A stretch of DNA of 64,000 bases from an uncultured Candidatus Saccharibacteria bacterium (GTDB lineage Bacteria > Patescibacteriota > Minisyncoccia > Phycocordibacterales > CAYRGE01). A program made the position numbers and the translations under genes. Positions 3,352 to 62,143 of this stretch are shown in pieces. The stretch spans positions 71,955 to 135,954 of the forward strand of contig CAZTCT010000001.1 in assembly GCA_964612415.1 (NCBI GenBank), in the 5' to 3' direction. The notes beneath the pieces are model-generated. The model saw only the letters and a list, made by a program, of their open reading frames with translations. It did not search any database and was not told the DNA's origin. Within the stretch, counting starts at the first letter, position 1. Each line of letters opens with the position of its first letter.

Positions 3352-4461
3352 CTATGTACTTAATGGAGCAATAAGATAAAGAAAGGATGTGTCCCCAACA
3401 CCCTTTATAACAAGGGGTTTACCTTGCCCAGAAAAACCAAGGGTAACACTATCTTGTGGAATAACACCCAAACAATCAATAATGTGTTTTTGATTAAACC
3501 CTATTTCAATCGGTTCCCCCTCTAAAACAGCGTCTAGGATCGTTTCATTTCTCCCCACATCAGGATTTTCTGAGATTAAAGATACTTGCTTTTGTTTTGT
3601 TTGCGCCAAAAATAGCACTTTGTGAAATTTATCAGAAAATGCGTTGGCGATTTTAAGTGCGTTTAAAACATCGTTTTTTAGTGTTGTTACCTCTGTTGTG
3701 TTGGTTTTTGGGATTATTTGACGGTAGTCTGGGAAATTTCCACTTACAAGTCTTGATGAGATATGTGTGTTTTTAAAAATAAAAGATATTTGATTCTCGT
3801 TGTGGTAAACAAGAACATCTCCAGTCTCTTCGTCTGTTTCGCAAACTTTTATTATTTCCATTGCTGTTTTTAGGGGGAGAATTAAGGATGAAAACTCTTG
3901 GTTATTTTTTGTGAGAATTTTCTTCTCAGCAAGACGTACAGAATCTGTTGCCACAAACACCACTGTTTTGCCTTCAGGGTACATATAAACACTAGATATT
4001 TCTGGCTTTATATTTGATATTGCTGCACTAAAAACAACACTTTTAAGTCCGTTTAAAAGATTGTTTTTTTCTATTAAAATCTCGTTTTCTTTTGGTTTTT
4101 GAGGAAGGGTTGGAAAATCATCAACGGGGAAACATTTTATTACCGCTTTATTCCCCCCTCCTGTAAAAAGGATGTTTCCTTTTTCTTCCTCTATTGAGAC
4201 AATTTTTTGATCTTGGATTGTGGTGAGGATATTACTTAATACTTGTGGGAGAACTACAAAAGACCCATTTTTTTGTGTTTTTGTTTGAATTACTGACTCA
4301 AAACCTATTTCAAGATTTGTTGCTCTAATAGTAACTTTATTATTTTCAATTAAAAACAAAACTCCTTGTAGTGTTGGTAGTGTTGAATTTTTACCTCCCA
4401 AAAACCTCTCTGCTAGAGATAAAACTTTTTTTAATTTTTCTGAAAAGAATTCTATTTTCAT
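3352..4461 (-). CDS. dnaN: DNA polymerase III beta sliding clamp
   Basis: 369 aa, MKIEFFSEKLKKVLSLAERFLGGKNSTLPTLQGVLF..., three-domain length, located downstream of dnaA. Confidence 0.9.
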   Translation of the reverse strand: MKIEFFSEKLKKVLSLAERFLGGKNSTLPTLQGVLFLIENNKVTIRATNLEIGFESVIQTKTQKNGSFVVLPQVLSNILTTIQDQKIVSIEEEKGNILFTGGGNKAVIKCFPVDDFPTLPQKPKENEILIEKNNLLNGLKSVVFSAAISNIKPEISSVYMYPEGKTVVFVATDSVRLAEKKILTKNNQEFSSLILPLKTAMEIIKVCETDEETGDVLVYHNENQISFIFKNTHISSRLVSGNFPDYRQIIPKTNTTEVTTLKNDVLNALKIANAFSDKFHKVLFLAQTKQKQVSLISENPDVGRNETILDAVLEGEPIEIGFNQKHIIDCLGVIPQDSVTLGFSGQGKPLVIKGVGDTSFLYLIAPLST

Positions 4462-4709
4462 ATTAATAAATGTTTATATATTTCTATATATAAAATATTT
4501 ATTATTACTATTATATGTGTTAATAAGTTGAAAACTTAAAAAAACCTTTATTTTACTGATTAAAAAACTATTTTTAAAAAGAAGAAGTTGTGAATAATGT
4601 GTGAAATTAAATAAAAGATTGTGGATAAATATCTCTAAAAATATATCAGCAGTTTTTATAAACAAATTTTTCCACAACTTTTTCATAATAAAACACAGCT
4701 TATTAACAT
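4462..4709. other. putative oriC: AT-rich dnaA-dnaN spacer carrying a DnaA-box cluster
   Basis: The 248-bp spacer is very AT-rich. It holds one perfect DnaA box TGTGGATAA (4620..4628), TGTGAATAA (4589..4597, 1 mismatch) and TTTTCCACA (4668..4676, 1 mismatch on the opposite strand), with long A/T tracts typical of a DNA unwinding element (DUE). Confidence 0.6.
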
Positions 4710-7004: not shown

Positions 7005-7040
7005 AATTGCAAAAAAATACAACTCTAATACAATAAACAA

Positions 7041-7799
7041 ATGGCGCAGCTTTTTTTTACGGCTATTGTGGAGCCCATCTACAATGGCTTTGTTTTTTTC
7101 ATAGATACCCTTCCAGGGGCTAGTGTAGGGTTCTCAATCATAATTGTTACCCTTATTGTAAGGTCTTTACTCCTTCCCTTGTCACACAAAGCGTCTCTTT
7201 CGCAAGTTAAAATGAAGGCCCTTGCCCCTGAGCTTGAGGTCATAAAAAAGAAATATGAGGGCAACAAAGAGGAGCAGGCAAAAAAAACCTTTGAATTGTA
7301 TAAACAGCATAACCTAAACCCTTTCTCAAGCTGCCTCTCAATGGTCGTTCAAATCCCTATCGTTCTAGGGCTTTTCTATGTGTTTTATCGGTATCTTCCA
7401 CAAGGAATAAACCCAGACTTTCTGTATTCATTTGTAACAATGCCCACCGCGCCAAACCTACACTTTCTTGGGGTTTTTGACCTTAGCCAAAAAAGCATAA
7501 TCCTCGCCCTTCTTGCAGCAACAGCGCAATTTTTCCAGCTCAGGTACATGTCGCCAGTTCCACCAAAGCAAGGGGAGAAGAAGGAGAAAAAAGCATTCGC
7601 CGAAGAAATGATGGCAAATATGACAAAACAAATGCGCTATACTCTCCCGGCAATTATCTTCATTGGTGCATATTACACCTCAGCAGCAGTTGCTCTTTAT
7701 TGGACCACAAGCAATATATTCTCATTTGCGCATGAGTGGTATGTAAGAAAAAAGGTTGAGAGAGAAGGAGTTAAAAAAACCGCACACGAGACCCACTAG
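7041..7799 (+). CDS. yidC: membrane protein insertase YidC (short, Gram-positive/CPR type)
   Basis: 252 aa, multi-TM, conserved SLLLPLSHKASLSQVKMKALAPELEVIKKKY...ELYKQHNLNPFSSCL core. Confidence 0.9.
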   Translation: MAQLFFTAIVEPIYNGFVFFIDTLPGASVGFSIIIVTLIVRSLLLPLSHKASLSQVKMKALAPELEVIKKKYEGNKEEQAKKTFELYKQHNLNPFSSCLSMVVQIPIVLGLFYVFYRYLPQGINPDFLYSFVTMPTAPNLHFLGVFDLSQKSIILALLAATAQFFQLRYMSPVPPKQGEKKEKKAFAEEMMANMTKQMRYTLPAIIFIGAYYTSAAVALYWTTSNIFSFAHEWYVRKKVEREGVKKTAHETH

Positions 7800-9082: not shown

Positions 9083-9844
9083 CTATGGAGTTACTCGTAA
9101 AGCGCAACCGGTTATAACTTTCTTTGAGGCGTCCTTTGTGTATGTGGCATATGTTGCAGCGCAATTAGCAGGGTCCTCGTGTGAGCAATATGGCAGCACA
9201 TTCTCTGGGGATGTTATTGTCGAATAAGTGAAGCAGTAATCTTTTGATGCAGTATTAGGATGGAAAAAGCTCTCTGGGTGGCATCCAGCAGACAAAGGAC
9301 CACTGGGGAGTTTTTGCCCGCACTCATTGGGACCACCAAAACAAAGAACTGGAGAGCCGCTCGATGCCTGGTAGCAGTAACGTTCTTTGCCGGGGACGTC
9401 CCCGTACTGATTTTGGCCGCTTGCGTTAAGTCCCCCAGGGAGACTGAGCCCCACTGAACCACTCCCCAACTTGCCACCAGCGTCTCCAAACCCCACTAGG
9501 TCTGGGTTGATTGCACTGAGAATGACCCAGGCGCCCAAAGCAAGAATAAGGCCGAACAGCGCGTTCCTGATGCGTTCTTTTGCTGCTCCACGAAGAGACT
9601 CGTTTGCCCCAGAGGCAATGTATTGAAGTCCTGCGACGACAAGCATGACCACAGCGCCAATAGAAGCAATTCCAAGCACAAGAGAGAATATGATACCAAA
9701 GTAGTCAGCGAGGGTCGTTACTTGAGTCGTTCCAAAAATGGGCGCAAGAAGCGTATAAGCAAAGGCACTTTCTGGAAGCAACAATAAGAGTGGTATCCCC
9801 CCCCAACTCAGTACTTTTCCTAAATACTTCCTTCCTTTTTGCAT
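9083..9844 (-). CDS. VirB2/TrbC-like T4SS pilin (CPR-type) with cysteine-rich C-terminal extension
   Basis: It has a signal peptide and then two hydrophobic helices, DYFGIIFSLVLGIASIGAVVMLVVAGLQYIASGANESLRGAAKERIRNALFGLILALGAWVILSAI. This is the pattern of TrbC/VirB2-type pilins. The last ~120 aa contain about 10 Cys. Confidence 0.6.
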   Translation of the reverse strand: MQKGRKYLGKVLSWGGIPLLLLLPESAFAYTLLAPIFGTTQVTTLADYFGIIFSLVLGIASIGAVVMLVVAGLQYIASGANESLRGAAKERIRNALFGLILALGAWVILSAINPDLVGFGDAGGKLGSGSVGLSLPGGLNASGQNQYGDVPGKERYCYQASSGSPVLCFGGPNECGQKLPSGPLSAGCHPESFFHPNTASKDYCFTYSTITSPENVLPYCSHEDPANCAATYATYTKDASKKVITGCALRVTP

Positions 9845-9850
9845 ATATAT

Positions 9851-10993
9851 TTAGAATCCACCAAAAAGTCCTCCTGGGAGCTGAATTTTAAGGCTTGCGG
9901 CAGCAGTCTGCACATTTCTTGAGAGGTTTCCAAAAAGCGCTTGGATATTTCCTGACTCACCTATTGTGATGGTGGTTGATGTAGCGGACGGCAATTGTTT
10001 GCCGTCCATGGACCATTTGAAAGAAAGGTTGTCCATGGAGAAGAAATAAGGCTCCGCCTTCAAAGTAACCTCTGAATCGGGAGCATCAAATGTGCCTGAC
10101 AGCGCCCTTCCATATTCAATTCCAGAAAGCGGACTTGTTTGGTAAAAAAGAACCTTTGGTTGTGTTGGGGGGATGGTAATGGTTCCTTCGGCAACAAGGA
10201 CATTGTCTGTAGAGTAGGCACGAACCTTTATTGGTGCCCCTAAATACAAAGCGGGGCCATCTGCGTAATACACATATTTCCCTAAGCCAGAAGCCTTTTG
10301 GTCAGCGGTATTTCCATGTGACCAGGTATAACCAAGGTTTTCAGGAGCGATCTCCTTTCCATTGCTTGCGGTTAAGTGCGGGATTGCAACAACCCGAATA
10401 ATACTTCCAGGGGAAGCGAGGGCCTTGCCTTTATAAAAGGGAGGAGTATATGTGAGAGCCTCCCACGCAAGTTCTACTGCGGAGGGGTACACTGTCAGTG
10501 TTTTCTCGTATGTTTCACCTGTGGGGGTAGTTACCACAGCTCTAATGGCCGAAATCTCTCCAGAACCACCTGTTTTAAAAGATAGTTCGCGGAGTCCAGG
10601 ACCACGATCAATCAATGTGCCATTTATGTACCAAGAGATATTTGAAATCCCAAGATCGGTACTATAGGAAAAAAGAGAAACCGTTGCATCATTGTTGGGG
10701 CCCGGGTATTCAGGTCTTACATCGATAGTAATTGAATTTTCTGCCGACTGGCGAAGGATTTCTTTCACATTCGGCATTTTTACCGAATTGAGAGCATCAA
10801 GCATTTGCTGTTCTCTTGTGGGGGTATTGTTGAGTATCTCCTGAGGATCTGGGTTTGGGGAGAGAACGGCATCTAGGAAATCAGCATGAGCGACATGAGC
10901 AAGTCCGAAGGAAAAAATAATAACCCAAATAAACCTAAACTTCTTGGCTTGTAAATATGCCATAGTTACTCTCATTATAAAGAAAACCCCCAC
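9851..10993 (-). CDS. secreted hypothetical protein (signal peptide, beta-rich)
   Basis: 380 aa, N-terminal hydrophobic signal FIWVIIFSFGLAHVAHA, no recognisable catalytic motif. Confidence 0.65.
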   Translation of the reverse strand: MGVFFIMRVTMAYLQAKKFRFIWVIIFSFGLAHVAHADFLDAVLSPNPDPQEILNNTPTREQQMLDALNSVKMPNVKEILRQSAENSITIDVRPEYPGPNNDATVSLFSYSTDLGISNISWYINGTLIDRGPGLRELSFKTGGSGEISAIRAVVTTPTGETYEKTLTVYPSAVELAWEALTYTPPFYKGKALASPGSIIRVVAIPHLTASNGKEIAPENLGYTWSHGNTADQKASGLGKYVYYADGPALYLGAPIKVRAYSTDNVLVAEGTITIPPTQPKVLFYQTSPLSGIEYGRALSGTFDAPDSEVTLKAEPYFFSMDNLSFKWSMDGKQLPSATSTTITIGESGNIQALFGNLSRNVQTAAASLKIQLPGGLFGGF

Positions 10994-11016
10994 ATCAAAC
11001 CAGCAAAAAGTGTGAA

Positions 11017-11433
11017 TTATGCACCTGCGAGTGCGGGACTTGTTCCTTGCTTAACACTGCCCTGCCGCTTCTTTTGGGCCTCTCGGACTTCTTTGTTGTG
11101 GAAATGACGTATTACAAAAAGCATAATGGTTTCCATTGGGAGGATGCCCAAAAGAGGAACGAGCTCTATAAATATTGAAAGAGCGACAGTCGCGACGTTC
11201 CGCGTACTGGGGCGTACCCCACCCATAAATAGGTACATTGCTATTATTGAGCCAAAAACAAGATCAGTCCCCCAAGAAAACGCCTCCACAAGAAATCCTG
11301 CCGGGCTAAGCACCGTACTAAAAGTAAGAAGGGCTCCCACGATTTGGCTGAATACATCTGATATATCCAAAACCATCGCCACCAAGACAATAATCCAGAA
11401 GCCAGCGCCTAATTTTTTTTGGTCAGGGGACAT
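11017..11433 (-). CDS. small integral membrane protein, hypothetical
   Basis: 138 aa, 3-4 predicted TM helices, basic C-terminal tail. Confidence 0.55.
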   Translation of the reverse strand: MSPDQKKLGAGFWIIVLVAMVLDISDVFSQIVGALLTFSTVLSPAGFLVEAFSWGTDLVFGSIIAMYLFMGGVRPSTRNVATVALSIFIELVPLLGILPMETIMLFVIRHFHNKEVREAQKKRQGSVKQGTSPALAGA

Positions 11434-11436
11434 ATT

Positions 11437-13263
11437 TTATACTGGACCAGATCCTTCACTTGCAGCCAATTCATCCTTGGCCTTTTTGATCGCCAAGAGT
11501 TGCGACGGGTCTGAGGTGATGATCTGGTCCTCTGTGTACGAGGCGATAACCTTGATTGCTACACGCTTGAGGCCGGCAAAAAAGATGCCCTCCCCCACAT
11601 CAGATTCAAGAAGAAGATATTTTTCTTCCTCTGTAAGGTTGAAAGTTTTTTGCACAAGATCAATGGTCGTCGGCGATTGCTTAAGGAGCATTTGCATTGA
11701 TGAGTTTGTCAAAATAGGTACTCCATAAGGGGAGCGCAAAAAGTCGCCCACATCTTGTGTGATGGTTGAAAGGCCAAGGTAGTATTTTCTTCCTCGCTTC
11801 GCGAGACTGAGGAGGAAAGAGGCAGTGTCTTCAGACTTCATCATCCACCATGCCTCATCTACCACAAGAAGGCGTTTGCGAAGATTTTTTCTAATCGCGC
11901 TCCATATATGGTGTGTGATGATGTACATTGCTACGGGCTTCAACTCATCTTCCATGTCACGGATAGAGAAAACAACGAATTTTTTAGAAATATCAACATT
12001 AGAAGGCTGATTCATAAAGCCTGCCCATGTTCCTTTTGTGTATTTAGAAAGCTTCTGAACCAATGAATCAGCCCCTTCCATTCCAGATAAGACAAGCTCA
12101 AAGTCTGACAAAAGAGGAGCTTCTACTGATGAAAAGTCTGAATCTGCGGTGATATCTTTGAGGGCATATGTTTCTGTAATAGCACGGTCAATAATCGCGT
12201 CTTCTTCTGCAGAGAGTCCGCCAAGCATGATACGAAAGAGACCAACAAGATTAATGATCTGTGATCGTAGTACGTCTGCGGGAGACTCGTCTTCGCGAGG
12301 AGCGGGGAGATCAAATGGGTTGATGTGATTCTCTGAGGTGAGGGAAATATTGAAATATCTTCCTCCAGTGGCTTCCGCGAGATACTCATATTCCCGCTCT
12401 GGGTCAATAACAATAACATCAATATCGAACATGAGACTTCGCAAGATCTCAAGCTTTGTGTTGTATGACTTACCAGAACCAGATCGTGCAAACGTTACCG
12501 AATTGTAGTTTGGGAGAGAGAAGCGGTCAAAAAGGACCAGTGAAGCGTTGTGTCGGTTGATGCCATAGAGAATTCCTTTGTCGGAGGTGAGGTCAAAAGA
12601 CACAAACGGGAAGATGCTTGAAAGAGGAGATGTGTTCAACTTGTTATGTATAGCGAGGTCGTCATTGCAAGCTGGGAGCATACTGCGAAGACCTTCTTCC
12701 TGCTGGAAAATGGCGGGGCGGACATACACAAGGCGAGATTCTAGTAGAGATTGAATCTCGGACTCAAGCTTCTTGAGGTCTTCTTCAGAGTCTCCGTATA
12801 TTGAAATATAAAGACCTACATCAAAGATCTTTTCTTGTGCCTGCATAAGACTATCGCGCAAGTCTTCTAGGTCTTGGTACGCGGTTTCAAGCATTGGGTC
12901 ACGTACGAATCCTTTCCTCTCGCGCTCAGTGATCTGGCTGCTGACCTCGGCTACCTTTTTTTGAAATTTCTTCAATATCTGCTCTGTGTCTATCGGGTGA
13001 ACAAAGATTGATACATCAAATACTTTGTCTAGATTGATAATGGGAGCAAACCAACTTGCGGTAAGAACGCGAGGGTATGAGGTGACAAAAAATGTTCGCA
13101 TTATCTTCTCCCCCATCTGGATATCTTTTGGGGATACCTGAAGAGCGGATGGTGCGATAACATCTTCAAGCTCAATGTCTGCCTCGCCGTAAAGATCTTC
13201 TGGAAGTATCGGCATGACACTTTTTTCGTCGGCCCGCTTTTGCAATTTGTCAGATAAAGCCAT
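11437..13263 (-). CDS. VirB4/TraE-family T4SS ATPase, C-terminal ATPase portion
   Basis: 608 aa, Walker A ARSGSGKSYNTK, Walker B LLVVDEAWWMM. Its N-terminal region (IAPSALQVSPKDIQMGEKIMRTFFVTSYPRVLTASWFAPIINLD) matches the middle of Gram-positive TraE/VirB4 proteins. Confidence 0.8.
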   Translation of the reverse strand: MALSDKLQKRADEKSVMPILPEDLYGEADIELEDVIAPSALQVSPKDIQMGEKIMRTFFVTSYPRVLTASWFAPIINLDKVFDVSIFVHPIDTEQILKKFQKKVAEVSSQITERERKGFVRDPMLETAYQDLEDLRDSLMQAQEKIFDVGLYISIYGDSEEDLKKLESEIQSLLESRLVYVRPAIFQQEEGLRSMLPACNDDLAIHNKLNTSPLSSIFPFVSFDLTSDKGILYGINRHNASLVLFDRFSLPNYNSVTFARSGSGKSYNTKLEILRSLMFDIDVIVIDPEREYEYLAEATGGRYFNISLTSENHINPFDLPAPREDESPADVLRSQIINLVGLFRIMLGGLSAEEDAIIDRAITETYALKDITADSDFSSVEAPLLSDFELVLSGMEGADSLVQKLSKYTKGTWAGFMNQPSNVDISKKFVVFSIRDMEDELKPVAMYIITHHIWSAIRKNLRKRLLVVDEAWWMMKSEDTASFLLSLAKRGRKYYLGLSTITQDVGDFLRSPYGVPILTNSSMQMLLKQSPTTIDLVQKTFNLTEEEKYLLLESDVGEGIFFAGLKRVAIKVIASYTEDQIITSDPSQLLAIKKAKDELAASEGSGPV

Positions 13264-23833: not shown

Positions 23834-24874
23834 TTGTTTTTCGGAACACTTTTCATGCTTGTGCCGGTATCTAGTGCTAATGCTGGCTTTTTTACTTTCC
23901 TTGGGAGCATCTTTTTGGGCAATTCAACCAGCGCAGAGGAGAAGAGGATCAACTCTCAGAACATGGCGCTTCTTCAGGCGGCTGCCAACCCTGACCCCCA
24001 TGCTGCACAAGGGGGTGGTGACATTACTATCGTAAGTGACAGTGCCCTTCTCCCTGTTTCAGGCCCGGAAGGAACCCTTGCTGATATCGGGGATACACAA
24101 GGGGTGAAGGTGAAGAATGACCAGATCAGTGTCTATATTGTTCGCTCAAACGATACACTCTCGGATATTGCTAAGATGTTCGGGGTAACCGTCAATACGA
24201 TCCGTTGGGCAAACGATATAGGGACAAATGATGTCATCCGCGAGGGACAAACCCTAGTTATCCTTCCTGTGTCAGGTATTCGTCATACCGTAAAGTCAGG
24301 AGACACTCTTGCAAGTATTGCTTCTGCGTACAAGGCAGATAAGCAAGATATTATGGAGTTCAATGGGATTGAAGCCGGCGACTCTCTTACTGTAGGACAG
24401 GTTGTTGTTGTTCCCGACGGGCAGATGGCAATAAGCGTAACGCCAAAGTCTACCTCCTCATCAAGCAGCCAGTCATCAAGCACGGTACGCATCACTACTC
24501 CTTCATACGGTGACTATTACGCATACCCACTTCCTTCTGGAGCAGGAGTCGTGTCACAGGGATTGCACGGATATAACGCAGTTGACCTTGCTGCACCTCG
24601 CGGTACACCGGTCACTGCATCAGCGGGAGGAGAAGTGGTGGTTGCCAAATTTGCAGAAGGAGACCCATGGTTTGGCGGATACGGAAACTATATCGTCATC
24701 CAGCATGATAATGGTACGCAGACACTTTATGCTCACCTCTCTGGCGAGATCGTCAGCCGCGGGTGGAGTGTGGTGAAAGGACAGGTTATCGGATATGTAG
24801 GCGCGACAGGGCGTGCCACAGGAAGTCACCTTCACTTTGAAGTTCGTGGGGCCAAAAACCCATTTGGTATATAA
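23834..24874 (+). CDS. LysM-domain M23 family peptidoglycan endopeptidase
   Basis: LysM (YIVRSNDTLSDIAKMFGVTVNTIRWAN and a second LysM), then the M23 motif HDNGTQTLYAHLS...GATGRATGSHLHFEV. The track start at 23834 is a TTG; the first ATG is at 23855, so the start is uncertain. Confidence 0.85.
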   Translation: MFFGTLFMLVPVSSANAGFFTFLGSIFLGNSTSAEEKRINSQNMALLQAAANPDPHAAQGGGDITIVSDSALLPVSGPEGTLADIGDTQGVKVKNDQISVYIVRSNDTLSDIAKMFGVTVNTIRWANDIGTNDVIREGQTLVILPVSGIRHTVKSGDTLASIASAYKADKQDIMEFNGIEAGDSLTVGQVVVVPDGQMAISVTPKSTSSSSSQSSSTVRITTPSYGDYYAYPLPSGAGVVSQGLHGYNAVDLAAPRGTPVTASAGGEVVVAKFAEGDPWFGGYGNYIVIQHDNGTQTLYAHLSGEIVSRGWSVVKGQVIGYVGATGRATGSHLHFEVRGAKNPFGI

Positions 24875-24897
24875 ATCTCAAATGTACGAGGGAGGAA

Positions 24898-24933
24898 GAA
24901 AAACGGCTCAACCGATCGGTTGAGCCGTTTTTT
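24898..24933. terminator. bidirectional intrinsic terminator, 34-nt perfect palindrome AAAAACGGCTCAACCGA|TCGGTTGAGCCGTTTTT
   Basis: Lies between the convergent M23 gene and comM. The identical hairpin recurs at 35778..35811. Confidence 0.7.
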
Positions 24934-26461
24934 AGCTTGAAAAGAGGTGTTGTGGGCGGTACTGGAGAGCTTCTAAAATATGCTCCTGCGCGATTTCCTC
25001 TGAGCCATCAAGGTCTGCAATAGTGCGAGCAACTTTTATAATTCGGTGGTAGGCGCGTGGAGAAAGCCCCATCTTTTCTGCAGAGGATACGAGAATATTC
25101 TTTGCATCTGAAGATAGAGACGCCAAGGCATCTATCTCCCTTGGCTTCATTTGCGCATTTCGCGTTGTGCCATTCGCAAATCTTTTTTCTTGTATTGCTC
25201 GTGCTGACAGAACGCGGTCGCGTACCGCGGCGCTGCCTTCTCCGTCTGGGGCACGAGAAAGTTTTTCGTGTGGAATTGAGGGTACGTGAACCCAGATATC
25301 AATACGGTCCACAATCGGCCCCGAGATTTTACGCTGGTATTTTAATAATGTTCCTTGCGGGCACACACATGTCTTATTTGTTCCATAGTTCCCACATGGG
25401 CAGGGATTGAGTGCGGCGATGAGGGTGAAGCGAGAGGGGAAAATATCCGTTCCTTTTGAACGCGAGATGCTTACGGAGCCATCTTCAAGAGGTTGACGAA
25501 GTGATTCAATGACGCGACGGTCAAACTCTGGAAATTCATCAAGAAACAGGACACCAAAATGAGCCAAGGTAACTTCTCCTGGTTTTGGATGAGTGCCTCC
25601 TCCAATAATTGATACGTACGATGAAGTATGGTGTGGGGCGCGGAAAGGAGGATGCCGCACAATAAACTTTTTTAAAATTCCTGCCTGTGAATGTATGCCA
25701 GTGACTTCAAGTGATTCTTCCATAGAAAGAGGAGGAAGAATCCCAGACAACGCTTTTGCAAGCATTGTCTTACCTGTTCCTGGCGGGCCGTAGAGCGCGA
25801 CGTTGTGCCCTCCTGCAGCTGCAATCTCGAGTGCGCGTTTGGCAGTTTCTTGTCCTCGTATTTCTTTTAAATCAAAATCTGGTGTTTCAAAAGCATCATC
25901 TGTTAATGTTGGCGTAGCTTCTCTTGGAAGAGAAAAAGATGATTGAGAAGAAAGATGATCAATGAGTTCGTTGAGGGTTTTCACTCCGAATACACTCAAC
26001 CCGTCTATGAGCGCTGCTTCTGGCGCGTTTTCTTTTGGCACATATATTTCTTTAAATCCCTTCTCTTTTGCTTTTTGCGCAAACAAAAGAACCCCGAGCG
26101 CAGGGCGCAGTGTCCCATCAAGGGCGAGCTCTCCTAAAAATATTTTGTCATCCAAAGTCGCGGCGAGAATTCCCTGGGCCTTCAGATACCCAAGAGCAAT
26201 CGGGAGGTCAAAGAGTGCGCCTTCCTTTTTAATATTTGCTGGGGCCAAAGACACAACCACTTTTTGGTTACTGTGTTTGGGAGATTTAAATCCAGAATTT
26301 TTTATTGCAGAACCAACGCGATCGCGCGCCTCTTCAACTGCTTTATCTGGGAGCCCCACCACTATAAAAGAATGTAGACCTCCAGAGAGGTCTACTTCAA
26401 CAGAAACTATGTGTGGTGTAAGCCCGCTTACCTGTGCTGAATGGACGCGAGCGAAAGCCAT
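24932..26461 (-). CDS. comM: ComM/YifB-family Mg-chelatase-like AAA+ protein
   Basis: 509 aa, N-terminal Lon-like domain, Walker A GPPGTGKTMLAK, Walker B FLDEFPEF, C-terminal MgChelatase C domain. Confidence 0.85.
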   Translation of the reverse strand: MAFARVHSAQVSGLTPHIVSVEVDLSGGLHSFIVVGLPDKAVEEARDRVGSAIKNSGFKSPKHSNQKVVVSLAPANIKKEGALFDLPIALGYLKAQGILAATLDDKIFLGELALDGTLRPALGVLLFAQKAKEKGFKEIYVPKENAPEAALIDGLSVFGVKTLNELIDHLSSQSSFSLPREATPTLTDDAFETPDFDLKEIRGQETAKRALEIAAAGGHNVALYGPPGTGKTMLAKALSGILPPLSMEESLEVTGIHSQAGILKKFIVRHPPFRAPHHTSSYVSIIGGGTHPKPGEVTLAHFGVLFLDEFPEFDRRVIESLRQPLEDGSVSISRSKGTDIFPSRFTLIAALNPCPCGNYGTNKTCVCPQGTLLKYQRKISGPIVDRIDIWVHVPSIPHEKLSRAPDGEGSAAVRDRVLSARAIQEKRFANGTTRNAQMKPREIDALASLSSDAKNILVSSAEKMGLSPRAYHRIIKVARTIADLDGSEEIAQEHILEALQYRPQHLFSS

Positions 26462-32441: not shown

Positions 32442-33356
32442 ATGACACTTTCCGAGCTCAAAAAGCAATTTCTTGAATATCTTGAGATTGAACGCGGGCG
32501 AAGCATGAAGACGGTAGAAAATTATGATCGCTATGTCTCGCGGTTCCTTGAGCAGACGGGTGCTGCTTCCCCATCGGATATCACCGACGATACGGTGCGT
32601 ACATTTCGTCTCTGGCTCAATCGTCAGAAGACGATAGATTCAACGCTCAAAAAGCGCACACAAAATTATTATCTTATTGCCCTACGGGCGTTTCTCAAGT
32701 ACATGGCGTATAGAAACATCCCTTCCCTTCCTGCGTCACGCATTGAACTTGCAAAGACTCCTGGGCGTGAACTTGACCTTATCTCTGCAGATGAACTTGA
32801 GCGGTTGCTCGCTGCGCCCTCGGGCGATTCGCTCCAAGAGTTACGTGATCGCGCCCTCCTTGAGATGCTCTTCTCTACCGGGTTGCGCGTATCAGAGCTC
32901 TGTGGTCTTCCTCGCGACCTAGACCTCTCAAAAGACGAATTCTCTGTGCGTGGTAAGGGTGAAAAAGTGCGCGTAGTATTTCTCTCTGATACAGCAAAAG
33001 GGGCTCTCAAAAAATATCTTGCAGCTCGCAAGGATATAGACGATGCCATGTTTATTCGCCTAGGAAGAAAAGCAAGTACTGGGACGAAAAAGGGAGAAAA
33101 TTTGCGCATCACTCCCCGCTCGGTAGAGCGGCTTGTGGCGCACTATGCGATCAAAGCCGGTATTTCAAAAAAAGTAACTCCGCACGTTATACGGCATAGC
33201 TTCGCGACAGACCTTCTTTCAAATGGCGCAGATCTTCGCTCTGTACAAGCACTCCTTGGTCATTCAAATATCACTACCACACAGGTATATACGCACGTGA
33301 CAGACAAACAGCTACGCGAGATTCATAAAAATTTTCACGGCAAGAGGAGGAAATAA
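32442..33356 (+). CDS. tyrosine site-specific recombinase, XerC/XerD-like
   Basis: 304 aa, catalytic region HVIRHSFATDLLSNGADLRSVQALLGHSNITTTQVYTHV (R..H..R..Y). Confidence 0.85.
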   Translation: MTLSELKKQFLEYLEIERGRSMKTVENYDRYVSRFLEQTGAASPSDITDDTVRTFRLWLNRQKTIDSTLKKRTQNYYLIALRAFLKYMAYRNIPSLPASRIELAKTPGRELDLISADELERLLAAPSGDSLQELRDRALLEMLFSTGLRVSELCGLPRDLDLSKDEFSVRGKGEKVRVVFLSDTAKGALKKYLAARKDIDDAMFIRLGRKASTGTKKGENLRITPRSVERLVAHYAIKAGISKKVTPHVIRHSFATDLLSNGADLRSVQALLGHSNITTTQVYTHVTDKQLREIHKNFHGKRRK

Positions 33357-34682: not shown

Positions 34683-34783
34683 GGCATGTTCTCCCTGGGA
34701 AGTGGTTTGCGTGCAGCAACTACCCGCACACTAGCACAGCCCTCCGTTTTTTCAATGGGAGATGTGGGTGCTACAATACGCAC

Positions 34784-35572
34784 ATGAAAATCGTTTCATG
34801 GAACGTAAATGGCCTTCGTGCAGTACATAAACGCGGGGATTTCATGAAATTCATCAAGAAGACGAAGCCAGACATCTTCTGTCTGCAAGAGATTAAAGCA
34901 GAAGACCACCAACTCCCTGATGAAATACGTGCTTTGTCCGGATACCACGCCTACTTCTCCTCCTCGCAAGGTAAAAAAGGATACAGTGGGGTAGCGCTCT
35001 ACACGAAAACAGAACCCGATGAAGTAATAAAGGGCATTGGCATTCCCCGCTTTGATCAGGAGGGGCGCATTGTGGGAGCTGTATTCGGGAATGTGGTGGT
35101 GCTCAATATCTACTTCCCCAATGGCGGAGGTGGTCCAGAGAGGCTCGCGTACAAGCTTGATTTCTACGATGCCTTTTTGGAATACATAGAGGACTTGCGC
35201 TCCAAAAACAAAAAAATCATCTTCTGCGGTGATGTCAATACAGCCCATGAGGCGATAGATCTTGCCCGTCCTAAAGAGAACGAAGAGAACACGGGGTTTC
35301 TCCCAGAGGAGCGCGCGTGGATAGATGAGGTTGTTTCACGGGGGTATATAGACATATTCAGGAAGCTTTATCCTAGCAAGGAGGGGGCCTATACGTATTG
35401 GGATATCAAGACGGCTGCCCGAGAGAGAAATGTAGGGTGGAGGATTGATTACTTTTTCATAGACCCCCGGGTGGCCCCCGCTGTGCAGAAAACAGGCATT
35501 CTATCGGACATATACGGCTCAGACCACTGTCCTATAGAGCTTGTCCTTGACGAGCAAAAGTTGCACATGTAA
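34784..35572 (+). CDS. xth: exodeoxyribonuclease III (AP endonuclease, Xth family)
   Basis: 262 aa, MKIVSWNVNGLRA...DIFCLQEIKA...GDVNTAHEAIDL...YTYWD...SDHCPI. Confidence 0.9.
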   Translation: MKIVSWNVNGLRAVHKRGDFMKFIKKTKPDIFCLQEIKAEDHQLPDEIRALSGYHAYFSSSQGKKGYSGVALYTKTEPDEVIKGIGIPRFDQEGRIVGAVFGNVVVLNIYFPNGGGGPERLAYKLDFYDAFLEYIEDLRSKNKKIIFCGDVNTAHEAIDLARPKENEENTGFLPEERAWIDEVVSRGYIDIFRKLYPSKEGAYTYWDIKTAARERNVGWRIDYFFIDPRVAPAVQKTGILSDIYGSDHCPIELVLDEQKLHM

Positions 35573-35685
35573 CACAAAATAGCTCGTCAAGACCTTGTAC
35601 CCCCCCTAAGGGAGTATTTTGGCACAAATGTTACATGTGTAACGATTACTCTAGTGCCCCGAGGCATGTCTTTATCGGGGGTAAT

Positions 35686-35822
35686 TGTTCCACGTGAAAC
35701 GTTTCACTCCTAGGCAGGACGCCAAAAAACCCTTATTTCTAGGCATTTCATAAATTCGAAATGTATGAGGTAGTAAGAAAAACGGCTCAACCGATCGGTT
35801 GAGCCGTTTTTGTGGTCCATGC
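35686..35822. repeat. intergenic module copy 1: CACGTG/GTGAAAC-GTTTCAC box, conserved 40-nt AGGCATTTCATAAATTYGAAATGTAYGAGG block, 34-nt palindromic terminator
   Basis: Box at 35691..35707, conserved block at 35740..35775, micro-ORF MYEVVRKTAQPIG at 35761..35802, palindrome at 35778..35811 (identical to 24898..24933). Confidence 0.7.
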
Positions 35823-36112
35823 CCCCAATCCTCGTGTTGTAGGGTTTTGTAGGTCGCCAAAACGAGGCTCGGCTACTGCTACTTAAAAAGTTTTCACGTG
35901 AAACGTTTTTGAGGCAGATTACGTAAAATTTTTTGATTGGTAGATTGGCATGAAGTGCCACACCCCCTGGGGACCCATCCTTTTGCACCGTTTCTTGAAT
36001 TTTGGAAATCCTGTCAAACAGACAGTACCCCTAGGGGGAGGCAAAATGTTAGTTTCCAATAAACGAGGGGGTATAGTCATTTTGTGGGCTTTCTACCGAG
36101 CGGACCTCTCCG

Positions 36113-36262
36113 CGAAACTGTTTCACATGTAACTTTTTATGGGGGTGGTCCCTTGATCTGGCATATACGCCCAAAAACCTATATTTTTCAGGCATTTCAT
36201 AAATTTGAAATGTACGAGGTGGTTAAAAAAGCGGGTCAATCATATGATTGACCCGCTTTTAT
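36113..36262. repeat. intergenic module copy 2, diverged paralog of 35686..35822
   Basis: GTTTCACATGTAAC box at 36120..36133, block AGGCATTTCATAAATTTGAAATGTACGAGG at 36190..36219, micro-ORF MYEVVKKAGQSYD at 36210..36251. The 36-nt perfect palindrome at 36225..36260 differs from copy 1 only by paired (compensatory) substitutions. Confidence 0.7.
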
Positions 36263-36345
36263 GCCACACCCCCTTATACTCTTGGCCTACTCCCATGGTA
36301 GTGTCTAGAGGTGAAACAGGATAAAATGTTTCACGTGAAAGGTTT

Positions 36346-50102: not shown

Positions 50103-50133
50103 ATCAAAGCTCTCTAGTTATAAAAGAGACACC

Positions 50134-50168
50134 AACACCCGCGCCTAGGCGCGGGTGTTGTTTTTTTG
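50134..50168 (+). terminator. intrinsic terminator AACACCCGCGCC-TAG-GGCGCGGGTGTT + T7
   Basis: 12-bp GC-rich stem followed by TTTTTTT. Confidence 0.7.
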
Positions 50169-55634: not shown

Positions 55635-55720
55635 AGAGACTTGCAGTGTACATCAGTAATAAAAAAAGTAAACCCGCCAATATTGGCGGGTTTACTGTGA
55701 GGTAAGGCTTGAGAATATTT

Positions 55721-56890: not shown

Positions 56891-56999
56891 ACATTAAAAA
56901 TGTTACTAAGGTGTCAAAATGTTACACATATGGAGTCGAGTACTCCTTTTTTGATTATACTCCATATAAACCCAAGAGGTATTTCTTTGAGGGGAAAAC

Positions 57000-57025
57000 A
57001 AAAAAACGGCCTAGGCCGTTTTTTT
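57000..57025. terminator. palindromic terminator AAAAAAACGGCC-TAG-GCCGTTTTTTT overlapping the ppa stop codon
   Basis: Perfect palindrome with A-run and T-run arms. Confidence 0.6.
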
Positions 57026-57553
57026 GTTACCGTATGAGTCTTGGTAAAGTTTAATCCCTCTTTTTACTGCTTCGTGCGCCGCTTTCTTTCCTTCAAATCC
57101 ATTTACTTCAACCTCTTTGTTCTGCAGTTTCTTGTATGTTGAGTAGAAATGTTCAATTTCCTTAAGCGTATGCTTGTTTATATCGGCAAGGTCTTTCACA
57201 TCACTCCATCTAGGATCATCTTTTGGAACAGCTATAACTTTGTCGTCTGCATCCCCGCCATCAATCATTCTCATGATTGCAACAGGGCGGGCATGTACCA
57301 AAATACCAGGGGCAAGTGGGTATGTGGTGAGGAGTACTACATCGATCGGGTCTTTGTCATCCCAGAGTGTCTGGGGGATAAATCCATAATCAAAAGGGAA
57401 GTCTTGTGCCGTGTGCGCGACGCGGTCAAGAGCGATAAGGCCCGTCTCTTTGTCTATCTCGTACTTATTTTTGGATCCCTTGGGGATTTCGATGATTGTA
57501 TTTACCACGTCTGGGAGCTCGTCTCCCGGGGTGATTTCATGCCACAAGTTCAT
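57011..57553 (-). CDS. ppa: inorganic pyrophosphatase (family I)
   Basis: 180 aa, DPIDVVLL...DGGDADDKVIAV signature. Confidence 0.9.
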   Translation of the reverse strand: MNLWHEITPGDELPDVVNTIIEIPKGSKNKYEIDKETGLIALDRVAHTAQDFPFDYGFIPQTLWDDKDPIDVVLLTTYPLAPGILVHARPVAIMRMIDGGDADDKVIAVPKDDPRWSDVKDLADINKHTLKEIEHFYSTYKKLQNKEVEVNGFEGKKAAHEAVKRGIKLYQDSYGNKKTA

Positions 57554-58967: not shown

Positions 58968-59170
58968 GGTTGCTGATTTTGTTTTTATTAGCCCGCCTAT
59001 GTGGGCAAATTTTGGGTAAAAAATAATGCCCGCGGGTACGGACATTGATGCGATTATGATAGCATTTTCATCTTTTCTGTCAAGGTAGGGTTTAAATGTG
59101 GAGAACTTGTCCTCCGGAAGGGTGTACTTACTGCTATAATATTGAGTACTTACTACACTGCTCTTTCCTT

Positions 59171-60922
59171 ATGACAGTAGATAACAAACAGCTCAAAGAG
59201 TTTCTCATTGACGCGGCACTTGTCTCAAGAACTGATATTGAGACAGTTGAGAAAAAAATGGGAAAAGGGGAGCACCTTGGCGACGCGCTTTTAAAAAGTG
59301 GCAAATTGGCTGAGGATGATTTGCGGCGAACGGAGGCATATATTCTAGGAATACCTTTCGTAAGTTTAAAAGGGCAAAAAATTGACTTTAGCGTTCTGTC
59401 CTTGGTCCCTGAGCCAATCGCCAGAAAGCACAATATTGTCGCTTTTAAAAAAAGCACCTCTGGACTTGAGGTTGCCATGTTAGACACAGATGATCTGACC
59501 GCTATTGAATTCGTAAAGAAAAGCGTCGGGCTACGCATTTTACCAAGACTTACCGACAAAGATTCTATTAAGTCTGCCCTAGTTCAGTACAAAAAGAGCC
59601 TTGAGGCAGAGTTTGACGATATCATTCAAAAGGAGGCAGTTTCCCTAAAAGAGGTGGCAGACTCTTCTGACGATAAAGACGTTTCCGAAAAAGAACTCAA
59701 GAAGCTCGCCGAAGATCTCCCTGTTGTAAAAATCGTTGACACTCTTCTCAACCACGCGATTATTCAGAATGCCTCGGATATTCATATTGAGCCGATGGAA
59801 ACACAGGTAATGATCAGGTATCGCATTGATGGTATCTTGCATGATGCCATGGTCTTGCCCAAGAGTGCTGCTGCAGGCATCACTGCTCGTATTAAAGTTC
59901 TCGCTAACCTAAAGCTTGACGAAAAGCGCAAGCCACAAGACGGGCGCTTTAAAGTTGAGACAGCAGACCAGAAAGTTTCTTTTCGTGTCTCTCTATTGCC
60001 AATATATTTTGGAGAAAAGACAGTCATGCGTCTTTTGCGAGATTCCTCCGGGAGCTTACCTCTTGAGGCGCTTGGTTTTCACGGGCTTGGGCTTGAACAA
60101 GTCCATGATGCCACGCGACAGAAGACGGGCATGATTCTCACTACAGGACCTACTGGTTCAGGAAAAACCACCACGCTCTATAGTGTGCTCGATATTCTCA
60201 ATACTCCAGAAGTAAACATCTCGACGATTGAAGACCCAATTGAGTATCAAATGCAGCGGGTTAATCAAACACAAGTAAGGCCCGAGATTGGCTTCACTTT
60301 TGCAAGTGGCCTGAGAGCGCTTGTGCGCCAAGACCCGGATATCATTATGGTCGGTGAAATTCGCGACGGGGAAACAGCGTCTTTGGCTGTGAACGCGGCG
60401 CTTACCGGACACCTGGTTCTTTCTACTCTGCACACCAATTCTGCTGCTGGAGCCATGTCCCGCCTTGTCGATATGGGGGTGGAGCCCTTTCTAATTGTTT
60501 CTACGGTGAATGTAGTAATTGCTCAGCGTCTTGTGCGTCGACTTTGTCCGGCAAAAGAGAAATATCAACTTACAAAAGCCGAGATCGCTGATCTTGGCAA
60601 GAATGCAAACCTTGATCGGATCCGAGAGGCGCTCATTGAGGAAAAAATTATTTCTGGAAAAGAGAAATGGGAAGATATTCCATTCTTCCGCGCGCAAAAG
60701 TCAGCTGAGTGCGTAGACGGGTATTCAGGCCGAGCGGTTATTTATGAAGTGATGAAGGTCACCCCTACTATTCGTGAACTTGTTATGAAGAGCACGACCG
60801 CGTCGCAGATCGAAGAGCAGGCGAGGAAGGAGGGAATGATGAGCATGTTAGAGGATGGAATTTTTAAAGCAGCGCAGGGAGTAACCACCATTGAAGAAGT
60901 ATTTCGAGTTGTTTCAGAATAA
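59171..60922 (+). CDS. pilB: type IV pilus assembly ATPase PilB (GspE family)
   Basis: Walker A TGPTGSGKTTTL, Asp box, Walker B IIMVGEIRD, His box, tetracysteine-less C-terminal domain. Start at the internal ATG (MTVDNKQLKEF). Confidence 0.9.
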   Translation: MTVDNKQLKEFLIDAALVSRTDIETVEKKMGKGEHLGDALLKSGKLAEDDLRRTEAYILGIPFVSLKGQKIDFSVLSLVPEPIARKHNIVAFKKSTSGLEVAMLDTDDLTAIEFVKKSVGLRILPRLTDKDSIKSALVQYKKSLEAEFDDIIQKEAVSLKEVADSSDDKDVSEKELKKLAEDLPVVKIVDTLLNHAIIQNASDIHIEPMETQVMIRYRIDGILHDAMVLPKSAAAGITARIKVLANLKLDEKRKPQDGRFKVETADQKVSFRVSLLPIYFGEKTVMRLLRDSSGSLPLEALGFHGLGLEQVHDATRQKTGMILTTGPTGSGKTTTLYSVLDILNTPEVNISTIEDPIEYQMQRVNQTQVRPEIGFTFASGLRALVRQDPDIIMVGEIRDGETASLAVNAALTGHLVLSTLHTNSAAGAMSRLVDMGVEPFLIVSTVNVVIAQRLVRRLCPAKEKYQLTKAEIADLGKNANLDRIREALIEEKIISGKEKWEDIPFFRAQKSAECVDGYSGRAVIYEVMKVTPTIRELVMKSTTASQIEEQARKEGMMSMLEDGIFKAAQGVTTIEEVFRVVSE

Positions 60923-60925
60923 AAT

Positions 60926-62143
60926 ATGCCTAAATTTCAATACAAAATTCATACATCAGAAGGTGATCTGCAGGAAGGAGTGGTAGAAGGAACTGATCGT
61001 TATGAAGTCGCGCGCAAGTTTACTTCGGAAGGTAGCTCAGTAGTTTCTGTTGAAGAAATAGAGAATAAAAGTTTTCTTGACATGGAGCGGATCAATGCAG
61101 CGCTCAGTCGAGTAAAAATACAAGACCTCATTGTTTTTGCGCGCAATCTTGCTGCGATGATTGACGCGGGCCTCGCACTCTCACGGGCGCTTGCTGTTCT
61201 TGAGAAGCAAACAAAAAATGCAAAGTTTAAGCGCATTATTAGTGAGCTAAGAGATGACATCGCTAAAGGTACCAACATGAGCGATGCGATGAAGAAACAC
61301 CCCAAAGAATTTGGCGCACTTTTTACCTCAATGGTACGTGCAGGAGAAGAGGCGGGGAATCTTTCTGAATCATTGCGCGTTGTCGCCGAGCACCTTGATA
61401 AAAGCTACCAGCTGCGCAAAAAGATCAAGGGGGCGATGATATATCCTTCCATTGTTATTTCTGCAATGGCAATTATCGGCGTGCTTATGTTCATATATGT
61501 GGTACCTGTGTTGGTAGACACTTTTAGGAGCCTTGACGCGGAACTCCCATCGAGCACGAAATTTGTCATCCTTTTGAGTGACCTTCTCTCTGGGCACCCA
61601 CTATTGTTCTTTGGTACGATACTGATCCTCGGCGTTGTACTTGTGGTAGCAGGACGCACAAAACAAGGGAGACGAGTTCGCGAGAAGATCGTTTTGCATC
61701 TGCCAGTGGTCAAAGATATTGCAAAAGAGGCAAATGCTGCACGTACCACACGTACACTCTCTTCACTGCTCTCTTCTGGGGTAAGTTTGATCGTTGCTCT
61801 TGGGATTACCAAAGATGTTATGCAGAATTCTCATTACAAAGAGGTCATTGATGCTGCTGTTGCTGATGTAGAAAAAGGTGTTCCGCTTTCAAACGCGTTT
61901 GTTCAGCGAGCCGACCTCTACCCCATATTAGTTGGAGAAATGATGGAAGTAGGTGAGGAGACAGGGAAACTTTCTGACATGCTTCTTAATACCGCAAAAT
62001 TTTATGAAGGAGAGGTTGATGAAGCTACAAAAAATCTTTCGACGATAATTGAACCAGTGCTTATGGTCATTATCGGCTCTGCAGTTGGATTTTTTGCCGT
62101 TTCAATGTTGACGCCAATGTATAGCGTGATGACAAATCTCTAA
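60926..62143 (+). CDS. pilC: type IV pilus inner-membrane platform protein PilC (GspF family)
   Basis: 405 aa, two GspF repeats each followed by TM helices. Confidence 0.9.
   Translation: MPKFQYKIHTSEGDLQEGVVEGTDRYEVARKFTSEGSSVVSVEEIENKSFLDMERINAALSRVKIQDLIVFARNLAAMIDAGLALSRALAVLEKQTKNAKFKRIISELRDDIAKGTNMSDAMKKHPKEFGALFTSMVRAGEEAGNLSESLRVVAEHLDKSYQLRKKIKGAMIYPSIVISAMAIIGVLMFIYVVPVLVDTFRSLDAELPSSTKFVILLSDLLSGHPLLFFGTILILGVVLVVAGRTKQGRRVREKIVLHLPVVKDIAKEANAARTTRTLSSLLSSGVSLIVALGITKDVMQNSHYKEVIDAAVADVEKGVPLSNAFVQRADLYPILVGEMMEVGEETGKLSDMLLNTAKFYEGEVDEATKNLSTIIEPVLMVIIGSAVGFFAVSMLTPMYSVMTNL

Follow-up and report, generated by a model that had tools for sequence, protein, structure and literature searches.

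A candidate chromosome partition site with palindromic terminator cassettes between convergent xth and cca genes of an uncultured Patescibacteria bacterium

The xth–cca spacer

Within a 64-kb stretch of DNA from an uncultured Patescibacteria bacterium (hereafter the window, meaning the whole stretch analysed), an xth-like nuclease gene and cca, which encodes the CCA-adding enzyme, converge on a spacer of 773 bp. The spacer holds six boxes that resemble parS, the loading site of the partition protein ParB, and two related cassettes, c1 and c2, each combining a −10-like hexamer, a 13-codon open reading frame (ORF) and a perfect 34-nt palindrome (Table 1). A first-pass annotation, made from the letters of the sequence, had proposed two paralogous modules between these genes, and the proposal holds: the features lie where it had placed them, and the best local alignment, which covers both cassettes as delimited in Table 1, scores 93 versus 19 ± 2.6 for shuffled sequences. 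An ungapped repeat of 93 nt (35722-35814 and 36171-36263) shows 75% identity, and the 34-mer AGGCATTTCATAAATTYGAAATGTAYGAGGTRGT occurs exactly twice in the 64 kb (0 expected).

The outer parts of the spacer are recovered in independent Logan assemblies, the xth side as far as the first palindrome and the cca side as far as the second. The Logan contigs end within the 34-nt palindromes (L001 and L002 in that of c1, L010 in that of c2), and the middle of the spacer, the ~420 nt between the palindromes (~35806-36230), is supported by the window's own assembly only. Together with L003 and L014, two contigs from relatives described below, these make five short-read contigs from four samples whose ends all lie inside a 34-nt palindrome; the palindromes fragment assemblies of this lineage. 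A look-up of a 60-amino-acid ORF of the spacer middle gave no record.

Table 1. Positions of the spacer elements, of their relatives elsewhere in the window and of the genes around them
Feature	Position	Strand	Remark
Degenerate parS-like box AGTTGCACATGTAACA	35559-35574		4 mismatches to TGTTTCACGTGAAACA; overlaps xth stop codon
parS-like box TGTTACATGTGTAACG	35629-35644		L003 ortholog TGTTACACGTGAAATG
parS box TGTTCCACGTGAAACG	35686-35701		2 mismatches; palindromic box of first-pass module copy 1
Cassette c1	35718-35826	+	90.9 bits with covariance model R1
c1 relic of M23 3' codons	35720-35740	+	alignment
c1 −10-like CATAAA	35749-35754	+	then 6 nt, ATG 35761-35763
c1 13-codon ORF	ATG 35761-35763 to TGA 35800-35802	+	cassette also has a purine-rich linker
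c1 palindrome	35778-35811		perfect, 17+17 nt, A-tract and T-tract; first predicted terminator downstream of xth
parS box GTTTTCACGTGAAACG	35890-35905		between both cassettes
parS-like box TGTTTCACATGTAACT	36119-36134		palindromic box of first-pass module copy 2
Cassette c2	36166-36273	+	88.3 bits with model R1
c2 relic block	36168-36188	+	alignment
c2 CATAAA	36198-36203	+	then 6 nt, ATG 36210-36212
c2 13-codon ORF	ATG 36210-36212 to TGA 36249-36251	+	sequence
c2 palindrome	36227-36260		perfect, 17+17 nt; first predicted terminator downstream of cca, 85 nt past its stop
parS box TGTTTCACGTGAAAGG	36327-36342		directly past cca stop codon; confirmed in Logan contig L010
Four parS-like boxes within cca coding sequence	36565-36580, 36880-36895, 36995-37010, 37573-37588		also present in L010
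parS box	38697-38712		upstream of a UPF0102 gene, beside c3; 2 mismatches
Cassette c3 (diverged copy)	38579-38664	−	preceded by parS 38697-38712; 21.5 bits
c3 inverted repeat	38632-38664	−	imperfect: one mismatch, one bulge
c3 TGTATT + 6 nt + ATG	ATG 38612-38610	−	sequence
c3 weak hairpin	38582-38597	−	sequence
Cassette c4 (full copy)	24850-24935	+	90.7 bits with model R1
xth-like (Exo_endo_phos nuclease)	34784-35572	+	domain match
cca (PolyA_pol/HD, CCA-adding enzyme)	36346-37818	−	likely start ATG at 37818, 490 amino acids
dnaN	3352-4461		
dnaA	4710-6071		
yidC	7041-7799		

A cluster of parS-like boxes

The 16-mer TGTTNCACGTGAAACA is the chromosomal parS consensus, the highly conserved target of ParB in most bacteria (PMC7022226). 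With up to three mismatches allowed, it has 10 matches in the 64 kb, as compared with 0.33 expected from Markov simulations, and nine of the ten fall within 3.3 kb (35.7-38.7 kb; P ~2e-11); three sites, at 35686, 36327 and 38697, carry only two mismatches. When two weaker CACATG variants are counted, the cluster amounts to ~11 boxes over 3.2 kb, of which the 773-bp spacer holds six. The first-pass annotation had noted two CACGTG boxes and called them promoter-like, a description that does not survive the match to the parS consensus, and there are ~11 boxes rather than two; its other suggestion, of protein-bound modules, fits the boxes, for which protein binding is the best reading.

Relatives carry fewer boxes at the same locus. 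Contig L003, from a relative whose Xth is 85% identical, retains three after xth in the same spacer, and a box stands there at the place of the degenerate one over the xth stop codon. In L011, L012 and L013 one to three boxes lie beside or inside cca and UPF0102; the more distant syntenic relatives, at ~70% identity, have only one to three near cca. This distribution suggests that the locus is the parS region of the clade and that the number of boxes has grown in the lineage of the window. The cca-internal box at 36565 appears orthologous to a weaker word, TGTTACACAAGAAACA, in L011, and the cca-internal boxes as a group suggest parS sites evolving within coding DNA. The cluster as a whole most likely represents a Patescibacteria chromosome's centromere that has expanded in the window's lineage. 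Our literature search found no paper combining parS or ParB with Patescibacteria.

The position of the cluster relative to the origin can be estimated from dnaN, dnaA and the three DnaA boxes that lie between them (4589-4676): with these markers at 3.3-6.1 kb, the spacer would be ~30 kb from the likely origin. The spacer itself, searched for oriC markers, has no enrichment of DnaA boxes and was rejected as a candidate oriC given the cluster between dnaN and dnaA; GC skew was too noisy to use. The degenerate box at 35559-35574 sits in the loop of a 10-bp inverted repeat (35548-35593; CTTGACGAGC / GCTCGTCAAG) that flanks both the xth stop codon and this first parS-like box, and the inner 6 bp of the repeat are kept in L003. 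A 28-codon ORF, MLVSNKRGGIVILWAFYRADLSAKLFHM (36047-36132), preceded by GGGGGAGG, has its end in the parS-like box at 36119, which recalls the way xth (…KLHM and stop) closes in a box of its own. Its significance is doubtful, because the genome hardly uses Shine-Dalgarno (SD) sequences.

A dispersed family of cassettes

A mismatch-tolerant search of the window with the conserved 18-mer found additional copies of the cassette outside the spacer. Cassette c4 occupies the entire 57-nt gap between the convergent genes for an M23 peptidase and comM, the stop codon of comM falling in the T-tract. Its sequence from 24870 to 24935 is TATAAAtctcaaATGTACGAGGGAGGAAGAAAAACGGCTCAACCGATCGGTTGAGCCGTTTTTT. 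The last M23 codons (…GAKNPFGI) lead into a TATAAA that holds the stop codon (24870-24875) and is followed, after 6 nt, by the ATG (24882-24884) of a 13-codon ORF. The palindrome of c4 (24899-24932) is identical to that of c1, the two sharing an identical 30-mer core (24901-24930 and 35780-35809). Cassette c3 is a diverged copy that aligns locally with c2 at a z of 10.6. A covariance model, R1, built from five copies, returned 88-91 bits for c1, c4 and c2, 21.5 bits for c3, and one further weak match at 56965-57028; in the window the family comprises three strong and one or two weak copies. Right beside c3 are two DnaA-box-like 9-mers (38555-38563 and 38575-38583), and the ATG of c3 opens a 182-codon ORF (38064-38612) that overlaps tRNA-Gly on the other strand, has no Pfam match and is probably spurious.

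The origin of the family is suggested by the block upstream of the conserved box. M23 homologs across Paceibacteria terminate in …HFEVRGAKNPF, and the DNA of these terminal codons (GGGGCCAAAAACCCATTT in the window, GGCGCCAAAAACCCTTTCTAAGG in L015, a contig of a relative at ~57%) can be aligned to that block in c1, c2 and L003 (CGCCAAAAAACCCTTATTTCTAGG). Since the block is a relic of the conserved C-terminal codons (…AKNPF), c4, the copy at the M23 gene, is the founder. The old tandem duplication invoked by the first-pass annotation does not stand alone: the pair is part of a dispersed family, with at least four members in the window, that descends from the 3' end of the M23 gene and evolves in concert. 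Tandem duplication of the whole spacer, including the gene 3' ends, was also rejected: in a spacer-wide comparison nothing beyond parS and the cassette is significantly similar.

Two comparisons with relatives bear on how the copies have been maintained. In L014, from a strain whose M23 peptidase is 96% identical, the c4 ortholog differs from that of the window at three palindrome pairs and has a 1-nt insertion, while the c1 and c4 palindromes of the window are identical to each other, which points to recent gene conversion among the copies. Between the window and L003, xth is identical at 51% of four-fold sites and the cassette blocks at 19/21, 17/18 and 27/30 positions; being far better kept than these sites, the cassette is constrained. 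The ~70% relatives have neither a match to R1 nor cassette homology in their xth–cca spacers.

Searches further afield did not recover the cassette. Rfam returned tRNAs only at gathering thresholds, and at E up to 10 only chance-level matches far below the gathering scores. A narrow, exact-pattern scan (TATTTNT-N8-13-TAAATTNGAAATGTANGA) over 185,579 species genomes and the JGI metagenomes gave three matches in each set, all attributed to chance; those in metagenomes, where the sequence was read, lie in AT-rich DNA, and those in genomes (Draconibacterium, Flavobacteriaceae and Oscillospiraceae) were judged by name only. A check for repetitive extragenic palindromes (REPs) and miniature inverted-repeat transposable elements found no flanking duplications and, in the window, no transposase apart from an Xer-type recombinase (32442-33356).

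The palindromes as predicted bidirectional terminators

The palindromes have arms of 17 bp with 7-8 GC pairs and tails of 4-6 T on each strand. Their folding energies range from −28 to −33 kcal/mol (z −6.8 to −9.2), and the c1 palindrome folds on either strand (z −6.8 on the plus strand, −9.2 on the minus strand). They stand at convergent 3' ends, both in xth/cca and in M23/comM, and those of c1 and c2 are the first hairpins after each of the convergent genes xth and cca. With every sequence hallmark in place at convergent gene ends, the prediction of these hairpins as bidirectional intrinsic terminators is strongly supported.

The c1 and c2 palindromes differ at five pairs and every change is mirrored; the mirroring had been recognised in the first-pass annotation, which undercounted the changes as six positions instead of ten. 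Across five copies, 98.7% of cells are Watson-Crick paired, a level reached in 0 of 500 shuffles, and six pairs have changed on both sides and none on one side only; this analysis is limited to five related sequences, in which a templated-mutation mechanism would yield the same pattern. The claim that perfect palindromes keep their pairing through double changes is thereby borne out. The changes alone, being Watson-Crick only, in a palindrome that runs through its centre and follows a habit shared by unrelated terminators of this genome, are no proof that selection acts on the RNA of either strand in particular. Any G·U pair would leave a C·A mismatch on the opposite strand, so that Watson-Crick-only changes fit bidirectional use, and they could likewise fit palindrome-templated mutation. 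The central nucleotides are GATC in c1 and c4, ATAT in c2 and GTAC in L014. Three unrelated terminator-like hairpins of the window, at 50133-50160, 55667-55696 and 56997-57028, are likewise loop-less perfect palindromes (centres CTAG, ATAT and CTAG), which marks this as a habit of the genome and not a property of the family; in all, this form is seen in six of the window's ~10 strong hairpins, many more than expected by chance.

A conserved box with a leaderless layout

Upstream of the palindromes, c1, c2, c4, L003 and L014 share a box of the form (C/T)(A/G)TAAA, 6 nt, ATG TAY GAR, to which TGTATT, 6 nt and ATG correspond in c3. All six copies have the ATG unchanged, and where codons 2-4 of the micro-ORF that it opens vary, they do so mostly at third positions. 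In the c4 ortholog of L014 none of the 25 nt of the box past the M23 stop codon has changed, as against ~10 of 70 nt (~14%) in the adjacent coding DNA. Unchanged amid changed coding DNA, the box is constrained at the founder itself, a constraint that still calls for a function.

The layout of the box recalls that of ordinary gene starts in this genome. An SD-like core lies upstream of only one of 32 window genes, and a −10 box is found 6-8 nt before the ATG of xth (TACAATacgcacATG), yidC (TACAATaaacaaATG), nusA (CATAATcgcatcaATG) and pnp (TATATTagactcatATG), which suggests that leaderless or very short-leader mRNAs are widespread in this organism. Gene starts such as those at 34766-34786, 7023-7043 and 59046-59070 show a −10 box close to the ATG. 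A micro-transcript of ~55 nt is possible, because the conserved box shares the layout of leaderless starts in a genome that lacks SD sequences. The micro-ORF runs for 13 codons in c1, c2 and c4, its TGA lying within the 3' arm of the hairpin. A promoter-consensus scan returned a single weak site, near c2.

Several other readings of the strand and frame were rejected. The plus-strand ORF MYEVV… and the minus-strand ORF MKCL… are not conserved coding genes, frame or start being lost in L003 and L014; in c2 no start codon is available for an ORF that would close at the TAA of the box; and a minus-strand promoter (TTGAGC-19-TACATT) has too long a spacer and a downstream ATG that is not conserved.

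Proposed organisation of the locus

We propose that the locus combines the core of a parS centromere with M23-derived cassettes bearing bidirectional terminators, an explanation that we consider fairly probable as a whole. The xth–cca spacer would form the core of the chromosome partition site of this Paceibacteria-like genome, with ParB loading at six of the ~11 clustered boxes. The terminator of c1 would end xth transcripts 205 nt past the stop codon and that of c2 would end cca transcripts 85 nt past theirs, each also stopping transcription from the opposite side; with both directions blocked, the inner parS sites (35890 and 36119) would be shielded from read-through. The spacer would have been enlarged in this lineage by local duplication and cassette copying, after which nothing was left recognisable except the parS boxes, the conserved box and the hairpins. 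Finally, the conserved box may be a weak promoter with a −10 element alone and a leaderless AUG, giving a transcript of ~55 nt that ends at its own terminator. This is the weakest step, a guess that we would sooner doubt than back, and the peptide of the micro-ORF is probably not the functional product.

A number of findings weigh against this organisation. The ORFs scanned in the 64 kb include no parA or parB gene and no ParBc domain, and three of the spacer boxes carry CACATG in place of CACGTG, which may make for weak binding. Upstream of the first terminator there are three parS boxes, and the 3' untranslated region of cca holds another, so that shielding covers only two sites. The −10 hexamers (CATAAA, TGTAAA and TGTATT) lack the usual final T, and no −35 element accompanies them. 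The micro-ORF is cut short in L003 by an in-frame TAA at codon 7, after six codons, and in L014 the 1-nt insertion shifts its frame after codon 6. Gene conversion, moreover, could keep the copies alike without each copy having a function.

Alternative explanations

The first-pass annotation had offered small RNA (sRNA) genes or micro-ORF genes as the likely content of the gap; a small transcription unit remains a live reading of the conserved box, and neither the 5' hairpin nor the micro-ORFs on which the two versions rely are conserved. In the sRNA version, c1 and c2 would be sibling trans-acting sRNA genes of ~70 nt on the plus strand, each made up of a 5' hairpin (GCAUUUC…GAAAUGU), an unpaired GAGGURGU seed and a terminator, and acting by base pairing in trans. 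We regard this as unlikely, even though both cassettes fold as two hairpins (z −6.8 and −7.8), a weak sigma-70-like site (CTGGCA-16-TATATT) lies just upstream of c2, and each of the three L003 differences in the 5' arm is a transition, which would preserve G·U pairing on the plus strand. The 5' hairpin (CATTTC/GAAATG) is confined to c1 and c2: c4 and c3, which share the conserved box, lack it, and neither the minimum-free-energy fold nor the centroid of L003 contains it. L003 does not keep the supposed seed, c1 and L003 have a poor upstream promoter (TATTTC), Rfam gave no match even at the permissive threshold, and the pattern was absent from the species genomes and JGI metagenomes covered by the narrow scan.

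Alternatively, c1, c2 and c3 might be passive, non-functional copies of the M23 3' end and its terminator, of which only the hairpin is used, with conversion from a selected c4 keeping the box alike. The identity of the c1 and c4 hairpins beside the differing L014 ortholog would follow naturally, as would the presence of a block homologous to coding DNA, for which no function would be expected in a spacer. This account, too, seems improbable to us: c2 differs at five hairpin pairs yet keeps 31/34 of the box region and so was not simply overwritten, and the unchanged box of L014 indicates constraint at the founder.

The micro-ORF could instead encode a functional micro-protein or leader peptide, a leaderless product of 13 codons (MYEVVRKTAQPIG, MYEVVKKAGQSYD and MYEGGRKTAQPIG) that acts as such or whose translating ribosome melts the terminator in an attenuation-like manner. 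The invariant ATG in a leaderless-type context, the common length and the shared placement of the TGA in c1, c2 and c4, the synonymous TAT/TAC, GAG/GAA and GTA/GTG/GTT changes, and a genome without SD sequences but with bona fide leaderless-looking genes are all in keeping with such a role. A functional peptide is nevertheless quite unlikely given the TAA in L003 and the frameshift in L014. In addition, c4 has two Val-to-Gly changes, the frame of c3 continues into the ORF that overlaps tRNA-Gly and has no Pfam match, there is no same-strand downstream gene to control, cca and comM being antisense, and an open frame of 13 codons has a ~0.56 chance of random occurrence.

A more elaborate possibility, which we think very unlikely, is that the cassettes serve the centromere as ParB-adjacent mini transcription units, each with a −10 promoter, a leaderless AUG and a bidirectional terminator, whose firing or occupancy sets the boundaries of ParB sliding or which ParB silences; in c1, c2, c3 and L003 the putative start has a parS box 67-92 bp upstream. 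If true, this would be an undescribed coupling of partition-complex architecture to micro-transcription in ultra-small bacteria of the Candidate Phyla Radiation (CPR).

That the palindromes are sites for a dimeric protein (core TCAAYC-N4-GRTTGA) or cruciform elements organising the centromere, and not terminators, is highly improbable: palindromy does run through the loop centre in four variants (GATC, ATAT, GTAC; each with a chance probability of 1/16), every copy has TCAA/TTGA unchanged and only Watson-Crick changes occur, but the unrelated terminators at 50133, 55667 and 56997 are just as loop-less and perfect, each stem is flanked by A and T tracts, c4 lies in a convergent gap without parS, and the L003 copy has a mismatch and a non-palindromic centre.

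A dif-like Xer site (CATTTCA-N6-TGAAATG) was rejected on four grounds: L003, c3 and c4 do not retain its arms, the region lies near the origin, two direct copies at a distance of 449 bp would lead to loss of the intervening DNA, and in relatives the motif is not found near xer.

Relation to known systems

Clusters of parS sites serving chromosomal ParABS systems are known from Bacillus subtilis, Caulobacter crescentus, Corynebacterium glutamicum and Myxococcus xanthus. The boxes described here share with them the 16-bp palindromic consensus and the presence of multiple origin-proximal copies in genes and spacers. They differ in their unusual density, in their location between convergent xth and cca and not beside parAB, which was not seen within the 64 kb, in the several CACATG boxes, and in their host, an uncultured member of the Patescibacteria in which the ParB sites are predicted.

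In the leaderless short ORFs of mycobacteria, the −10 box lies a few nucleotides before the AUG, which therefore forms the 5' end of the transcript. The conserved box has the same −10 placement and opens a very short ORF, but this predicted ORF is embedded in its own terminator, and its frame and length are not conserved in relatives.

Intrinsic bidirectional terminators typically consist of an A-tract, a stem and a T-tract. The palindromes follow this plan, with a symmetric GC-containing stem between an A-tract and a T-tract, at convergent genes and folding equally well on both strands; they depart from it as perfect palindromes without a distinct loop and as a repeated family with a conserved upstream box and concerted evolution. 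One preprint (bioRxiv 10.1101/2022.10.23.513370) cites Ju et al. 2019 for the prevalence of bidirectional terminators between convergent genes, and the elements described in that work do not resemble intrinsic terminators.

Like REPs and bacterial interspersed mosaic elements (bioRxiv 10.64898/2026.03.23.713779), the cassettes are short, dispersed palindromes in 3' untranslated regions and convergent gaps, with a conserved flanking motif and exchange between copies. They differ in having only three or four copies in 64 kb with no transposase of the REP-associated tyrosine type (RAYT) seen, perfect stems with terminator-type T-tracts, and an upstream part taken from a gene 3' end. Both parS clusters and bidirectional terminators are thus known kinds of element that here occur in a new setting, alongside a conserved box yet to be explained.

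Flanking genes and other features of the window

The nearest named homologs of Xth, Cca and the M23 peptidase belong to Patescibacteria (metagenome-assembled genomes of Paceibacterota, Parcubacteria, Yonathbacteria and Lloydbacteria). The xth–cca spacer, at 773 bp, compares with 341 bp in a JGI relative (Cca 84%) and with 12 or ~200 bp in the syntenic relatives at ~70% identity, which have the gene order pnp-NYN-rpsO-xer-xth><cca-UPF0102. In the JGI relative (3300056388), the 341-bp spacer is on a contig of 3,412 nt, and M23 and comM, on another of 17,340 nt, are separated by 69 nt. The window is part of a contig of 205,701 bp.

Several further observations concern the surrounding DNA. The spacer sequence TACGTAAAATTTTTTGATTGG (35917-35940) resembles TACGTAATTTTTTGATTTT (37843-37862) in the divergent cca/tRNA-Arg promoter region, with no matching −10 box. 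An element of ~55-65 nt (GGGCGCAGCGATGT…CCGCGAGCCGGGGTCGCG) occurs at 38012-38065 and 38281-38346, downstream of tRNA-Arg and tRNA-Gly, the copies being 80-88% identical. In the ~57% relative (L015/L016, 4158-6954), the comM beside M23 is truncated, and after it come genes for a serine recombinase and of the Prim-Pol/AAA_25 type, an arrangement that looks like a mobile element integrated into comM. Within the window itself, a gene resembling pilins of type IV secretion systems and one for a TraG-type P-loop ATPase lie among Pfam-less ORFs at 9083-13263, a few kilobases from dnaA, and genes of type II secretion E/F type lie at 59096-62143.

Implications

None of these findings overturns current understanding. 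The habits of the genome matter for its annotation: it has almost no SD sequences, its gene starts are of a leaderless type, and its terminators take the form of perfect palindromes. The cassette family would be a small, clean case in which a very small genome has copied a gene 3' end with its terminator, put the copies to new use and kept them alike through gene conversion. If the parS reading is true, the centromere of an uncultured Patescibacteria chromosome has been pinned down, and its growth can be followed from one to three boxes in relatives at ~70% protein identity to ~11 here, by way of local duplication and of parS-like words evolving inside the cca coding sequence. Chromosome segregation in the CPR is, to our knowledge, essentially unstudied, and the cluster would then offer a concrete target for work on ParB in these bacteria.

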